Assembly: GCA_963664405.1 (NCBI GenBank)
Contig: OY761158.1
Coordinates: forward strand, 5,184,001-5,248,000
Direction of reading: 5' to 3'
Source: Thermoanaerobaculia bacterium
GTDB taxonomy: Bacteria > Acidobacteriota > Thermoanaerobaculia > Multivoradales > Multivoraceae
DNA: 64,000 bases
The notes under the pieces are model-generated. The model did not search any database and had not been told where the DNA came from. It worked only from the letters and a program-made list of their open reading frames with translations. Numbering within the stretch: the first letter of the stretch is position 1; each line of letters starts with the position of its first letter. Positions 3,401-58,952 of the stretch are shown here, in pieces. The translations under genes were made by a program, and so were the position numbers.

Positions 3401-5572
3401 ATGACGGAATATGTCCCCGCAGGAGGCCTTCAGGTCGCTCGACGGATCTATGACCTGGTGCATGACGAGATCGCGCCAGGCACCGGTGTGGACTCGGATT
3501 CGGTTTGGGCTGGGCTGGGATCGATCGTCGCCGACCTGGGACCCAAGAACCAGGCTCTGCTCGACAAGCGTGACACGCTGGCGGCTAAGATCGACAATTG
3601 GTACCGTGATCGCAAGGGCCAGGCTTTCGACGGCGCCGAAATGGAGGCCTTTCTGCGCAAGATCGGCTACCTGGTGCGAGAGGGGAAGGGTTTCGAGATC
3701 GAGACCGAGAACGTCGATGCGGAGATCTCGACTCTTGCCGGTCCGCAGTTGGTGGTTCCGATCGACAACGCGCGCTATGCGTTGAATGCCGCTAATGCGC
3801 GTTGGGGGAGTCTCTACGATGCCTTCTATGGCACCGATGTGATCTCCGAGGATGACGGCGCTGGGCGCAGTGGTCCCTATAACCCGGTGCGCGGCGACCG
3901 TGTTATCGCACGCGCCAACACCTTCCTCGATGAAACCGTGCCGCTCGAGGCCGGCAGTCACTCGGAGGTGACGGGTTTCGCCGTAACGAAGGGTGCGCTC
4001 GTCTTCACTCTAGAGAGCGGCGAGAAGACAGGGCTTGCCGACACCGCGGCCTTCGCCGGCTACCAGAAGAAGGGCTTCGAACTGTCGAGCGTGCTACTCG
4101 TGCACCATGGGTTGCATATCGATATCCAGATCGATCCGTCGCACCCGATCGGCGAAGCACACAAAGCCGGGGTCAAAGACGTAGTGCTCGAGGCCGCGAT
4201 CTCGACCATCACCGACTGTGAGGACTCGGTCTCAGCGGTCGATGCCGACGACAAAGCGCTGATTTACCACAATTGGACTGGCATCATGAAAGGCAGCTTG
4301 GAGGCGGATCTCGAAAAAGACGGTCGTTCAATCGTTCGCCGCCTCAATCCGGATCGCGTTTACATCGGGCCATCCGGAGAGTCTGTCACTCTCCACGGGC
4401 GCAGCTTGCTCCTGGTGCGCAACGTGGGCAATCACATGATGACCGACATCGTGAAGACGGCGGCCGGCGACCCGGTCCCCGAGACCTTCGTCGACGCCAT
4501 GCTCACCGTTCTTGCGGCGATTCACGACCTCGTTGGTGGCGGCGCTATCCGCAACAGTCGCGTCCGCAGTGTTTACATCGTCAAGCCGAAGCACCACGGT
4601 CCCGAGGAGGTCGCTCTTTCGGTCGAGCTCTTTGGCCGCGTAGAAGAGGTCTTGGGGCTACGCCCGAACACCATCAAGATCGGCATCATGGACGAGGAGC
4701 GTCGCTGCACCGTCAACCTCAAGGAGTGCGTGCGCGTGGCGAAGGAGCGGGTGATCTTTATCAACACGGGCTTTCTCGATCGTACTGGGGACGAGATGCA
4801 CACCGCGATGGAAGCGGGCCCGATGATGCCGAAGCCGGAGATCAAGAACGCGCCTTGGATGCTCGCCTATGAGGATTGGAACGTGGACGTGGGTCTCGAG
4901 AGTGGTCTCGCCGGGCGGGCGCAGATCGGCAAGGGGATGTGGGCGATGCCTGACGAGATGAAGGCGATGCTCGATTCGAAGGCGGCGCATCCGGAGGCAG
5001 GTGCAAATACGGCCTGGGTGCCGTCGCCGACGGCGGCGACTCTCCACGCCCTGCACTACCACGAGGTCGACGTCTCGTCGCGGCAAACGGTTCTTGCCGA
5101 GCGACAGCGCGCCAGTCTCGATGCGATCCTTACTCCGCCGCTTCTCGACGGCCGTGAGCTGACCGCCGACGAAATTCAGAGAGAGCTCGACAACAACGCC
5201 CAGGGAATTCTGGGCTACGTGGTTCGTTGGGTCGATCAGGGGATCGGCTGCTCCAAGGTCCCTGACATCAACGATGTCGGCCTGATGGAGGATCGAGCGA
5301 CCCTGCGGATCTCGAGCCAGCACATCGCCAATTGGCTGCATCACGGCGTAACCAACGAGCCCCAAGTCATCGAGACCCTCGAGCGCATGGCGGCAATCGT
5401 CGATCGACAGAACGCGGGCGACGCCGCCTACCACCCGATGGCCCCCGGCTTCGACGAAAGCATCGCCTTCCAGGCCGCCAAGGACCTGATCTTCCACGGC
5501 CGCAACGAGCCCAACGGCTATACGGAGACGGTGCTGCATGCGCGGCGGCGGGAGATGAAGGGTAAGGAGTAG
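3401..5572 (+). CDS. glcB: Malate synthase G
   Basis: 723 aa; [43 protein letters not shown] and [13 protein letters not shown] motifs. Confidence 0.97.
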
Positions 5573-5632
5573 GAAGTAGGAAGTAAGCAGTAAGCAGTAA
5601 GCAGTGAGAAGTGAGAAGTAAGAAGTAGGAAG
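5563..5632 (+). repeat. Tandem heptamer repeat (10 degenerate units of TAGGAAG/TAAGCAG/TGAGAAG type)
   Basis: Read directly: TAAGGAG TAGGAAG TAGGAAG TAAGCAG x3 TGAGAAG x2 TAAGAAG TAGGAAG. Confidence 0.9.
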
Positions 5633-6064
5633 CGAGCGCTATTCCGCTGAGCGGATCCTCGAAGGAGGAATGGACGACCCTCTTTTCTCGCTCGAGCAGA
5701 CGCCGCGCCGCGGTCTCGTCGCTCTCGACAATCACGATGTCGGTGCCCGCTCGCTCGAGCTCGTCGCAAAGGTCTGCGACCGCCGGTCCGTAACCGTAGA
5801 TGAGCACACCGTCGTGGACCGGCGACGCCTTTTCAGGAAGGCGCCGCTCGAAGCGTTCCTCCAATGCAGGGATGAGATAGAAGGGGAAACCTGACCGTAT
5901 CCGGTGGTCGTAAGGGTTTCTGCTGCCCACCCCAGGCTGCGCCAGAATCCACGGCTCTTGCCCTCCAAGGTGGCCATGCCCACCATGTAGAGAAGGGAGC
6001 TCGCAATCAGCACAAGGACGAGGCTGCCAACCAGGGCGAGTAGCCGGCGGTGCGAGCGCTCCAT
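5633..6064 (-). pseudogene. Potassium channel/TrkA-domain protein, internally deleted and 3' truncated
   Basis: TM1 plus selectivity filter TLTTTGYG in one frame, then a jump to another frame with FPFYLIP...VLIYGYGPAVADL (RCK/TrkA-N Rossmann fold), ending at the heptamer repeat. Confidence 0.8.
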
Positions 6065-56497: not shown

Positions 56498-56526
56498 TTG
56501 ACGGAGGTTGCCGGAGGACCTAAACT
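56498..56526 (+). promoter_or_regulatory. Sigma70 promoter for the riboswitch-controlled operon
   Basis: TTGACG-17 bp-TAAACT. Confidence 0.75.
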
Positions 56527-56561
56527 CTCCTCCCTTGCAGTCGGTCTTCGGGACCGATTGT

Positions 56562-56680
56562 TTTCTTATCAAGAGTGGCTGAGGGACTGGCCCGTTGAAG
56601 CCACCGCAACCGCCCGGTACCGCACCGGGAAATGGTGCGAATTCCTGCCCGGTGCTTCGGCGTTCGGGGTAGATAAGGAG
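56562..56680 (+). ncRNA. SAM-I (S-box) riboswitch
   Basis: CTTATCAAGAG..GAGGGACTGGCCCG.TGAAGCC..GCAACC..GGTGC.AATTCCTGC..GATAAG; P1 is CTTATC/GATAAG. Confidence 0.93.
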
Positions 56681-56685
56681 CGGAA

Positions 56686-58011
56686 ATGCTTCAAGAAAAA
56701 CCTCTCAGCTTCGTTCAAGGCCTTCGCTGCAAGGTTTGCAGCAAGCTTTATCCGATCGAAACTCGGACCCTCTGCCCGGAGGACTTCGGCCCTCTCGAGG
56801 TCGCCTACGACTACGAGGCGATGCGCGGGGTGGTGACCCGCGAGCGAATCGAGGCCGGACCCCGCTCGCTGTGGCGATACCGGGATCTCTTGCCTATCGA
56901 AGGCGAGCCGACGGCCGGGCTGCACTCGGGCTACACCCCGCTGGTGCGTGCGCGCCGGCTGGCGGCCGAGCTTGGGGTCAAGGAGCTCTACCTCAAGGAC
57001 GACAGCGCCAACTACCCGACTTTTTCCTACAAAGATCGAGTGGTCGCGGTGGCGATAAGCAAGGCTGTAGAGCTCGGATTCACCACCGTAGGTTGCGCCT
57101 CGACCGGCAATCTCGCCCACTCGGTGGCCGCTCACGCTGCGCAGGCCGGCCTCGAGGCGGTGGTCCTGATTCCCCACGACCTGGAAGAGGGAAAGATCAT
57201 CGCTACGCAGATGTTCGGTCCGCGGATGATCAAGATCGAGGGCAACTACGACGACGTCAACCGCCTCTGCACTCAGATCGCGGGGGAGTACCCTTTCGCC
57301 CTGGTCAATGTGAATCTGAGGCCCTACTACACCGAAGGAGCCAAAACTCACGGTTTCGAGATCGCGGAGCAACTGGGCTGGGTGCTGCCCCGCCACACCG
57401 TGATCCCTGTCGCCGGCGGCACGATCTTGCCGAAGGTCTGGAAGAGTTATGAAGAGTTCATCGATCTCGGCCTGGTGGAGGATACGAAGCCCCGCATCCA
57501 TGCGGCGCAGGCGGCGGGCTGCGATCCGATCACCAAGGCGATCGTCGATGGCGACGAGGTGTTCCGGCCCCAGAAGCCCGACACGATCGCCAAGAGCCTG
57601 GCAATCGGTAATCCAGCGGACGGGTTCTTCGTCATGGATGTGGTCCGCGACTCCGGCGGTCATGCGGCGTCGGCGAGCGACGACGAGATTCTCGATGCTG
57701 TGGACCTGTTGGCGAGGACCGAGGGCATCTTTACCGAGCCTGCTGGAGGTACGACGCTCGCCTGCACAATTCGCCTGATCGAGTCGGGGAAGATTCCCCG
57801 CGACGAATCGATCTGCGTCTCGATTACGGGCAATGGCCTCAAGACGGCCGAGGTCTTTCGTGGGCGCTTCGCGGCGGCGCCGGTGATTGCACCTCGTCTT
57901 GCGGATTTCGGCCCGGCCTATGCGCTCGCGTCGCAGGCGAAGCCGGCCCCCCGTACAAGCATCTCCGCTGCGGCTAGTCCAGCAGCGGTACTCACTCCCC
58001 ACAGAGTTTGA
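56686..58011 (+). CDS. Threonine-synthase-like PLP enzyme (candidate O-phosphohomoserine sulfhydrylase)
   Basis: N-terminal CxxC knuckle, PTFSYKDR (PLP Lys), CASTGN, EGAKT, TEGIFTEPAGG and TGNGLK. Confidence 0.9.
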   Translation: MLQEKPLSFVQGLRCKVCSKLYPIETRTLCPEDFGPLEVAYDYEAMRGVVTRERIEAGPRSLWRYRDLLPIEGEPTAGLHSGYTPLVRARRLAAELGVKELYLKDDSANYPTFSYKDRVVAVAISKAVELGFTTVGCASTGNLAHSVAAHAAQAGLEAVVLIPHDLEEGKIIATQMFGPRMIKIEGNYDDVNRLCTQIAGEYPFALVNVNLRPYYTEGAKTHGFEIAEQLGWVLPRHTVIPVAGGTILPKVWKSYEEFIDLGLVEDTKPRIHAAQAAGCDPITKAIVDGDEVFRPQKPDTIAKSLAIGNPADGFFVMDVVRDSGGHAASASDDEILDAVDLLARTEGIFTEPAGGTTLACTIRLIESGKIPRDESICVSITGNGLKTAEVFRGRFAAAPVIAPRLADFGPAYALASQAKPAPRTSISAAASPAAVLTPHRV

Positions 58012-58024
58012 AAGGAGTCTCACG

Positions 58025-58306
58025 ATGGCGAACACGATCAAGGTGCACATTCCCGGTGAGCTGAGGGCGCAGGTGGACAACCAGACGGAGGTCCAGATGG
58101 CGGGCGGATCCGTACGCGAGATCCTCGGTAGCTTGGCTACGGCCTACCCGGTCTTGGGTAAACGTCTCTTTGATGGCGAGGGCCGGCTCAACCGCTTCGT
58201 CAATATCTATCTCAACGACGAGGACATCCGTTTCCTCCAGGATCTGGAGACCGGAACCAACAACGGGGACGAGATCTCGATAGTCCCCGCCATCGCTGGC
58301 GGCTAG
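58025..58306 (+). CDS. MoaD/ThiS/CysO-like ubiquitin-fold sulfur carrier
   Basis: 93 aa; FVNIYLNDEDIR and C-terminal IVPAIAGG; AAGGAG RBS. Confidence 0.92.
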   Translation: MANTIKVHIPGELRAQVDNQTEVQMAGGSVREILGSLATAYPVLGKRLFDGEGRLNRFVNIYLNDEDIRFLQDLETGTNNGDEISIVPAIAGG

Positions 58307-58866
58307 CCCGACCGCCCAGGGCACCCCACCTCACCGCGTGCTCGTCGCTCGGCTCCTCCGGCGTACCAGAAGTACGCCTGCGTCGCCTCGCTCCTGCGCT
58401 GCGGCGATCTGGGGCACCCTGAACGGCCGGGCTCCCGGGGACCCGAGAGATTGCCTCTCCGGCCGGCTGGGCGTACAGGAGTACGCCAACGTCGCCTTGC
58501 CCCTGTGCTGCGGCGATCTGGGGCGCCCGACCGCCCAGGGCACCCCACCTCACCGCGTGCTCGTCGCTCGGCTCCTCCGGCGTACCAGAAGTACGCCTGC
58601 GTCGCCTCGCTCCTGCGCTGCGGCGATCTGGGGCACCCTGAACGGCCGGGCTCCCGGGGACCCGAGAGATTGCCTCTCCGGCCGGCTGGGCGTACAGGAG
58701 TACGCCAACGTCGCCTCGCCCCTGTGCTGCGGCGATCTGGGGCGCCCGGCCGCCCAGGGCACCCCACCTCACCGCGTGCTCGTCGCTCGGCTCCTCCGGC
58801 GTACCAGAAGTACGCCTGCGTCGCCTCGCTCCTGCGCTGCGGCGATCTGGGGCACCCTGAACGGCC
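58307..58866. repeat. 219-bp tandem repeat (about 2.6 copies) of palindromic subunits
   Basis: Units start at 58307, 58526 and 58745 and are nearly identical; each holds two GGCGTAC-N5-GTACGCC hairpins. Confidence 0.93.
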
Positions 58867-58952
58867 CGGCGCCGACCGCGAGGGCACCCTTGAACGGCCC
58901 GGCGCCGGGCGTCCAGCGGGCGTCCAGCGGGACCCTGAGGGACTGAGGGGCG

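Follow-up and report, generated by a model that had tools for sequence, protein, structure and literature searches.

A SAM-I riboswitch operon encoding a threonine synthase-like enzyme and a sulfur carrier protein: a probable carrier-dependent route to homocysteine in a Thermoanaerobaculia bacterium

A 64,000-nucleotide stretch of the genome of a Thermoanaerobaculia bacterium (positions 5184001-5248000 of contig OY761158.1, assembly GCA_963664405.1; below, the window, with the contig called C1) contains a two-gene operon. The first gene encodes a pyridoxal 5'-phosphate (PLP) enzyme of the threonine synthase (ThrC) fold, and the second encodes a small carrier protein. An earlier reading of the DNA letters, referred to here as the original prediction, had placed a promoter, a SAM-I (S-adenosylmethionine) riboswitch, a ThrC-like PLP enzyme and a Gly-Gly carrier at this locus, and all four were recovered at the positions claimed (Table 1). 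The genes are separated by 13 nt, and the aptamer ends 6 nt ahead of the start codon of the first gene. We propose, with a probability of roughly 85%, that the pair is a metM-metO operon which would convert O-phosphohomoserine (OPH) to homocysteine, drawing the sulfur from a protein thiocarboxylate, and which would be repressed by SAM.

Table 1. Features of the metM-metO-like operon, in window coordinates.
Feature	Position	Strand	Basis
Sigma-70-like promoter, TTGACG-17 nt-TAAACT	56498..56526	+	consensus match
5' leader hairpin (11 pairs, UUC loop) followed by U-run	56537..56561	+	folding
SAM-I riboswitch aptamer (RF00162)	56563..56679	+	Rfam cmscan
Shine-Dalgarno sequence AAGGAG of metM	56675..56680	+	sequence; ATG 5 nt further on
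metM-like gene, ThrC-fold PLP enzyme, 441 aa	56686..58011	+	PF00291, TIGR00260
Shine-Dalgarno sequence AAGGAG of metO	58012..58017	+	sequence; 7 nt ahead of ATG
metO-like gene, CysO-like ThiS/MoaD-fold carrier, 93 aa	58025..58306	+	PF02597

The enzyme matched PF00291 with 223.2 bits and the threonine synthase equivalog model TIGR00260 with 267.7 bits, which is above the cut-off of 167.1. The NF006050 model gave 292.2 bits, below its cut-off of 303, and the cysteate synthase model gave 83.8 bits with a cut-off of 324.9. TIGR00260 cannot separate the MetM-like group from true ThrC; the ThrC encoded in a thr operon of the same genome scored 291.1 bits. Because the model is blind to this split, the protein scores as a threonine synthase by sequence while its function is left undiscriminated. 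The closest solved relatives are all threonine synthases (6cgq, 2zsj, 1uim and 2d1f; E values of 2.7e-60 to 1.3e-57), and they align only from about residue 60 onward. The putative Schiff-base residue Lys116 lies in a SYKDR motif that aligns with SFKDR of the solved ThrC enzymes, and it is invariant in 31 orthologues. Among these orthologues 98 columns are invariant; that the window protein shares them follows from how they were defined.

Class-I threonine synthases share with the window enzyme the fold, the presumed substrate OPH and 61 positions conserved in both groups, including S-x-K-D-R. The window enzyme differs from them by about 60 extra N-terminal residues, by its placement in a separate clade and by 34 positions with at least 90% conservation across 78 orthologues that deviate from the class-I consensus. 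Examples of these clade-specific substitutions are SYKDRVV for SFKDRGM and LRPYY for NPYR. We take the NPYR loop of ThrC to bind the substrate phosphate; a literature search for a published statement that the loop arginine binds phosphate returned nothing usable. The extra N-terminus is a zinc-ribbon-like domain, represented in the window protein by C15, C18, C30 and D33. The ribbon motif CxxC...CxxC occurs throughout the clade, and the fourth cysteine is replaced by aspartate (CPEDF) in the window protein and its Phycisphaeraceae-related subclade. The best 120 homologues listed include no Streptomyces entry, and every named one is called 'threonine synthase', which bears out the misannotation that the original prediction had suspected.

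The carrier matched PF02597 with 51.9 bits and ends in AIAGG, directly followed by a TAG stop codon. No substitution of the C-terminal glycines G92 and G93 occurs among 31 carriers. Since the protein ends exactly at Gly-Gly, no C-terminal trimming should be needed. Its closest solved relatives are chain 3dwg_C (E value of 1.9e-16) and the ThiS/MoaD family protein 4n6e_B. We take 3dwg_C to be CysO of Mycobacterium tuberculosis and the entry 3DWG to be the complex of CysM with CysO. A 219-bp tandem array (2.6 copies, 99% matches) at 58306-58870 starts exactly on the metO TAG stop and can alternatively be read as sub-units of about 110 bp. A classification of this array as a dispersed repeat was rejected, since its core occurs three times in the genome and always within the array.

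Modeling of the enzyme-carrier complex, with each protein entered as a 31-row alignment, gave scores of 0.65, 0.66 and 0.65, compared to 0.00 for the best control. Of 157 solved complexes, 116 reach the score mark applied, as do 2 of 215 mismatched pairs. The runs agreed in at least 80% of the contacts, and the pLDDT (predicted local distance difference test) of the partner was at least 84. Confident modeled contacts on the enzyme involve residues 17 and 28-36 of the ribbon, residues 189-212 (including R212) and residues 292-314, and those on the carrier involve residues 56-70 and 87-90. The model supports binding of MetO by MetM.

To place the operon among its relatives we retrieved 80 related loci, with lineage names taken from record titles, and counted gene context over 79 of them (L078 was left out). 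The loci include Planctomycetota/Phycisphaeraceae sequences (69-74% identity), Binatia and 'Deltaproteobacteria'-labelled metagenome-assembled genomes (MAGs, about 60%), and representatives of Omnitrophota, Acidobacteriota, Actinomycetota, Chloroflexota and other lineages. Of the 79 loci, 56 have a same-strand SAM-I element upstream of the enzyme gene (55 detected by Rfam, and L079 added by our own model), 53 have a MetO-like gene directly after it, and 39 have a same-strand ThiF-type E1 gene. Downstream sequence is shorter than 500 nt in four of the 26 loci that lack a carrier. The neighbors also include a CysM-like PLP gene (25 loci), a small NIR_SIR protein and an aspartate kinase (nine loci each) and a homoserine dehydrogenase (three loci); neighbor families were confirmed on one representative each. 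The E1 gene lies between riboswitch and metM in 17 Binatia-type loci, and a JAB peptidase gene separates metM and metO in the Armatimonadota locus L073. No SAM-I element was found in any of 44 loci with other ThrC paralogues, among them the thrC and a third paralogue of the window genome. The class-I ThrC loci examined have neither riboswitch nor carrier, unlike the window enzyme. The arrangement also occurs in a cultured actinomycete, Nonomuraea gerenzanensis, which has a riboswitch (68.7 bits), the enzyme (50.2% identical over 90% of the query) and a 91-residue carrier ending in AVAGG in the same order.

A further ThrC-family paralogue was found in all 28 orthologue-bearing genomes searched (27 of 27 without genome G022). 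In phmmer comparisons with the window protein the orthologous group scored 440-723 bits and other paralogues at most 258 bits; a single row of 362 bits is a cut duplicate of the orthologue from locus L061. In a tree of 66 ThrC-family rows from these genomes (LG+G4, quick search, SH-aLRT support only; 51 additional orthologues and eight rows that were fragments or duplicates were left out) the 27 MetM-like rows form one clade with a support of 100, which also contains four Actinomycetota MAG loci. This clade stands apart from a nine-row class-I ThrC clade and from an NF006050-like clade. The phylogenetic comparison with bona fide ThrC that the original prediction had proposed thus separates the enzyme from all other ThrC paralogues.

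These data bear on an alternative in which the protein is a true or bifunctional threonine synthase/deaminase paralogue, the carrier belongs to some other pathway and control by SAM does no more than balance the branch point at OPH. Such an assignment is favored by the TIGR00260 score above cut-off, by the solved relatives and by the ThrC and deaminase activities described in vitro for a Microcystis homologue in PMC12172450. It is opposed by the 34 clade-conserved positions unlike class-I ThrC, including RPYY for NPYR, by the strong clade-wide linkage to carrier, E1 and JAB genes with a switch in none of the 44 other paralogue loci, and by a complete thrA-thrB-thrC operon elsewhere in the genome. 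Furthermore, an off-switch triggered by SAM has the wrong sign for sending OPH to threonine at high SAM; in plants, SAM activates ThrC. We therefore regard the threonine synthase assignment as unlikely and the MetM-like assignment as preferred.

Several loci of the group show variations on the gene order. In five Dehalococcoidia loci an 80-residue open reading frame (ORF) lies between metM and metO; the two tested, L080 and L084, are NIL-domain proteins by Pfam. A NIL-domain gene is absent from the window operon and was not found anywhere in the genome. In an Omnitrophota locus (L030:4450-end) and the Armatimonadota locus (L073:4766-end) the carrier ORF continues for about 80 residues past Gly-Gly, and by eye these tails resemble the Dehalococcoidia NIL proteins. 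In a Nitrospirae MAG (L061) a same-strand class-I thrC gene (4773-5852; TIGR00260 326.2 bits) comes after metM-metO, so that both OPH-consuming enzymes share one gene string; no SAM-I element was found in this string. A NIR_SIR/4Fe-4S protein of about 310-325 residues (L073:1703-2680 in the Armatimonadota locus) is encoded directly upstream of metM in that locus and in eight of 10 Omnitrophota loci, and it may provide a dedicated sulfite reduction or sulfide supply step.

The remaining proteins of the proposed pathway were searched for in the window genome itself. A separate thrA-thrB-thrC operon on C1 encodes an 825-residue thrA-like (bifunctional) ORF, a ThrB (NF002288 354.3 bits, cut-off 194) and a 430-residue ThrC, with the start of thrC overlapping the end of thrB by 13 nt. 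A second thrC, which the original prediction had suggested looking for, thus exists in a complete operon. The window enzyme is therefore not the sole ThrC of the genome; had it been the sole one, this would have counted toward the refutation that the prediction had set for itself. A third ThrC-family paralogue (L003:1351-2472; C1:5974889-5976010) is a true NF006050 member, with 463.9 bits compared to the cut-off of 303. It has an N-terminal ribbon-like region and neither riboswitch nor carrier, and it clusters with paralogues of six genomes reached via Binatia-type ('delta proteobacterium'), Vicinamibacterales, Acidobacteriota and Dehalococcoidia loci.

Genes for a CysM-like enzyme, a JAB peptidase, a CysO-like carrier and a MoeZ-like E1 form a cluster at C1:3685812-3688711. 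The JAB gene (PF14464 95 bits, C1:3686780-3687142) lies between cysM and cysO. The last gene of the cluster encodes a 391-residue E1 with a rhodanese-type C-terminus, which is the only PF00899 match of the genome (276.4 bits); its full-length alignments to the MoeZ model NF005902 (499.8 bits, cut-off 647) and the MoeB model NF005646 (518.5 bits, cut-off 633) stay below the cut-offs. The CysO-like carrier of the cluster is 40% identical to MetO and ends in AGGGGAR, so it would need trimming by the JAB peptidase, unlike MetO. Another ThiS-family match lies near this cluster on the opposite strand (3690626-3690847). The E1 and JAB genes are about 1.55 Mb away from the metM-metO operon (at C1:3.687 Mb, with the window at C1:5184001-5248000), and tblastn with E1 queries found no E1 in the 64 kb of the window. 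This agrees with the original prediction, which had noted that activating and releasing enzymes are not in the window and had asked for them in the genome: the only PF00899 match and the strong PF14464 match are both in the cysM-mec-cysO-moeZ cluster.

The similarity of the carrier to CysO raises the question whether the pair instead makes another sulfur compound, such as cysteine from O-phosphoserine in the manner of CysM/CysO, or cysteate. The closest solved relative of the carrier is the presumed CysO chain 3dwg_C, the 25 operons with a CysM-like gene point in the same direction, and SAM-I switches also control cysteine genes in some bacteria. Nevertheless, the genome already has the cysM-mec-cysO-moeZ set with its own carrier, and the CysM-like gene of the operons, where present, is additional and does not replace metM. 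The cysteate synthase score is far below the cut-off, and MetX and MetA were not found in most orthologue-bearing genomes, which makes homocysteine the gap to fill. The synthesis of cysteine or cysteate by this pair is thus improbable, at a level slightly under that of the threonine synthase assignment, and homocysteine is retained as the expected product.

Downstream and parallel steps of methionine synthesis were also identified. The genome encodes MetH (1123.1 bits), and a metY gene (TIGR01326, 561.6 bits) adjoins metX (NF001209, 334.7 bits, cut-off 331). Also encoded are another metY (NF006004, 740 bits) and a gene resembling those of cystathionine gamma-synthase or lyase (CGS/CGL). The original prediction had proposed the absence of metA, metX, metB and metY as a check, and in this respect it failed: metX, two metY genes and the CGS/CGL-like gene are present, so metM-metO would be a second route here and not the sole one. 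Among these candidate routes it is the only one found under SAM-riboswitch control in this genome. The second metY, encoded on the opposite strand, has a cobalamin riboswitch (93.1 bits, L090:2894-3090, + strand) as its neighbor.

The SAM-I aptamer matched RF00162 with 86.4 bits (gathering score 44.4, E value of 4.4e-19) over the full length of the model (positions 1-108). It is the sole Rfam match in the window and the sole RF00162 match in the 6.78-Mb genome. A scan of flanking DNA gave no Rfam element ahead of metY-metX, metH, thrABC or the cysM cluster. According to the cmscan structure line, the 3' strand of helix P1 spans 56672-56679 (GAUAAGGA) and pairs with 56563-56570. Structure and sequence together place five of the six bases of the metM Shine-Dalgarno (SD) sequence AAGGAG inside this strand, so five SD bases would be buried when P1 is stabilized by SAM. 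We infer that this occlusion would block translation of metM. Neither a terminator nor a separate sequestering hairpin was found between aptamer and metM. The SAM-I switches (S-boxes) of Bacillota that have terminator platforms share the aptamer family, whereas in the window the SD lies within P1 and the ATG follows closely on the aptamer. Plain minimum free energy folding of the leader neither reproduced the aptamer fold nor separated the two states (z-score of -1.64) and was not used as evidence.

The region ahead of the aptamer is partly shared with relatives. The predicted promoter, a consensus match only, agrees with the consensus at nine of 12 positions, and such a site was found once compared to a mean of 0.2 in 50 shuffled sequences. 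Both hexamers are kept in two same-family relatives, aligned as TTGAC and TA.AAT. The U-run of the leader hairpin runs on into the 5' strand of P1, and a hairpin-forming stretch occurs at the matching position in the two relatives. It is possible that this hairpin (56537-56561) is a 5' stabilizer or a part of the switch.

Alignment with the same two relatives suggests how the unusual spacing arose. The relatives have about 55-80 nt between the aptamer and GAGGAG/ATG, a stretch that is missing in the window, and by eye a short hairpin in this extra leader could mask the SD. In the window the ancestral SD GAGGAG has become GAAAAA and the ancestral ATG has become CTC. At the end of the aptamer AAGAAG has changed to AAGGAG and a new ATG follows, so that the protein gains six residues. 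The reading frame of metM cannot begin before 56677, and its earliest start codon is the ATG at 56686. The N-terminus MLQEK... recurs in a 98%-identical protein of another assembly, so an assembly error is not the cause. Judging from this comparison, the window switch has lost its expression platform, which would leave helix P1 itself to cover the ribosome-binding site. In the Phycisphaeraceae loci a terminator-like hairpin with a U-run is found 88-253 nt ahead of the start, and by eye its 5' arm can pair with the 3' strand of P1. The aptamer-to-start spacing in four Actinomycetota loci is 0-7 nt, as in the window.

The deletion could also be the mark of a decaying remnant, in which loss of the ancestral SD and start codon has impaired expression or regulation. 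The missing leader of about 55-80 nt and the changes to GAAAAA and CTC would fit such decay, and the conventional metX/metY route is present. Both ORFs are intact, however, and the window protein keeps the 98 invariant columns, albeit by construction. The new ATG is preceded by a strong AAGGAG at 5 nt, the N-terminus recurs in the 98%-identical protein, and GC content and third-position GC content (GC3) match those of neighboring genes. Decay is accordingly the least likely of the alternatives considered, with a very small chance of being correct, and an intact metM-metO operon remains the preferred description.

Orthologues of the enzyme are rare among close relatives. A true orthologue was found in only three of 41 genomes of the family and order of the window (the window genome and two relatives with 79-80% identity), and other matches in these genomes are at most 38% identical. 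MetX was found in 31 of the 41, and 21 of the 24 relatives from the same family have it, a pattern opposite to that of the other phyla. A search of 29 orthologue-bearing genomes, mostly MAGs of unstated completeness (27 came via the loci, and the two relatives were added), found MetX in five and MetA in none, and in 24 it found neither. These counts make the MetM route look like the only one in most of those genomes. In a second tree of 64 rows, which included one of the two same-family orthologues (L171 was left out), the window protein falls in a 10-row clade (support 99) with that relative and with proteins labelled Acidobacteriota and Vicinamibacteria by NCBI. This clade is nested in a 31-row clade (support 100) that otherwise consists of Phycisphaeraceae/Planctomycetota proteins, and the remaining Acidobacteriota loci fall in a different clade. 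Because of this placement and the rarity in its own family and order, lateral exchange with Phycisphaerae is suggested, in either direction. No compositional sign of recent transfer was found, since GC (0.60-0.63) and GC3 (0.77-0.81) are like those of neighboring genes.

A wider scenario may be sketched from these observations, and we hold it tentatively, as being somewhat more likely wrong than right. The metM-metO operon would be a laterally acquired back-up of MetX/MetY, in which the leader deletion rebuilt the riboswitch such that P1 hides the new ribosome-binding site, a natural conversion from hairpin-mediated control to direct occlusion by P1. The clade-specific zinc ribbon, whose fourth cysteine is an aspartate in the window protein, would separately serve for docking and so would have converted a ThrC scaffold to a homocysteine synthase that depends on the carrier.

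The following mechanism can be formulated for the operon. OPH would be supplied by ThrB of the thrA-thrB-thrC operon. The sole ThiF-family E1, which is MoeZ-like, would load MetO by adenylating its C-terminal Gly-Gly and converting it to the thiocarboxylate. In the ThrC-fold enzyme OPH would be bound on PLP at Lys116, phosphate would be eliminated and MetO-COSH would attack C-gamma. Homocysteine would either be freed directly or, on the model of CysM/CysO, leave once an acyl shift has occurred and the JAB peptidase Mec has cleaved the product; MetH would methylate it to methionine. With SAM bound, P1 would form and hide the ribosome-binding site of metM, shutting translation off, and without SAM the site would be free. 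In this genome the operon would thus provide a second route beside metX-metY. The enzyme clade, the linkage of riboswitch, carrier, E1 and JAB genes, the partners found in the same genome and the complex model together make a carrier-dependent homocysteine route, as the original prediction had proposed, the best reading of the locus.

A number of observations weigh against this reading. By the rule of NCBI the protein passes the thrC equivalog model. Orthology to the characterized Streptomyces albulus MetM (UniProt A0A059WBP2) is indirect, with the four Actinomycetota MAG loci in the clade and the matching layout of N. gerenzanensis speaking for it, and conversion of OPH and MetO-COSH to homocysteine is inferred from homology and context. 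The pass of the complex model could partly reflect memory of the solved 3DWG structure. With metX and two metY genes present, the route is not required in this organism, and the 'not found' results in other genomes, which are mostly MAGs, are weak evidence of absence. Deletion of the expression platform could equally mean that regulation was damaged and not rewired. Finally, PMC12172450 reports that a cyanobacterial MetM homologue with a MetO-like neighbor is a threonine synthase and threonine deaminase in vitro, and that its induction gave no rise in methionine. The activities of this homologue imply that the MetM clade may retain or combine activities.

The closest known system is the MetM/MetO/MoeZ/Mec route of S. 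albulus (Hasebe, Adachi, Maruyama, Hamano 2024, Appl Environ Microbiol 90:e0124724, as cited in PMC13759103, PMC12172450 and bioRxiv 10.64898/2026.09.15.751699). According to these citing sources, it shares with the window a ThrC-homologous enzyme, an adjacent ThiS/MoaD-type carrier, an upstream SAM riboswitch (described for S. albulus metM in PMC12172450) and MoeZ and Mec in the genome; in both cases homologues are annotated as threonine synthase. The window differs in lineage, its nearest named homologues being labelled Acidobacteriota, Vicinamibacteria and Phycisphaeraceae, in having a riboswitch without a separate expression platform and in the co-existence of metX/metY. Another difference is that MetO of the window ends at Gly-Gly and should need no maturation, whereas GapMind 2026 (PMC13759103) lists Mec as the MetO-maturing hydrolase in Streptomyces. 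The CysM/CysO/Mec+/MoeZ system of M. tuberculosis has in common with the window a protein-thiocarboxylate donor, the carrier family and the E1 and JAB partners. In contrast to CysM, the PLP enzyme of the window is ThrC-like, with OPH and not O-phosphoserine as the expected substrate, and has the N-terminal zinc-ribbon-like domain that is modeled at the carrier interface. The Microcystis aeruginosa 'ThrC', encoded beside a carrier gene, is reported as a homologue of S. albulus MetM at 51.6% identity. Unlike the window it has no SAM riboswitch, and the same report (PMC12172450) describes threonine synthase and deaminase activities in vitro and demonstrates no part for it in making methionine. 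The Microcystis case is the main published caution against assuming one activity for the whole clade.

The operon is most likely a further example, recognized from its sequence and context, of a pathway that was published in 2024 and is widely mislabelled. GapMind 2026 (PMC13759103) lists the pathway and its four proteins as experimentally supported and states that MetM is often misannotated as threonine synthase. Since the pathway is already published and included there, the main value of the present case lies in annotation. Local additions are limited to a switch without a platform, the presence of MetX/MetY alongside the operon and the modeled contact between ribbon and carrier, all of them leads rather than findings. 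The 24 orthologue-bearing genomes (of 29) in which neither MetX nor MetA was found represent several phyla, mostly uncultured. Should this absence hold in complete genomes, the mislabelled pair would be their only homocysteine route, and it would be an error of metabolic reconstruction to class such organisms as methionine auxotrophs.

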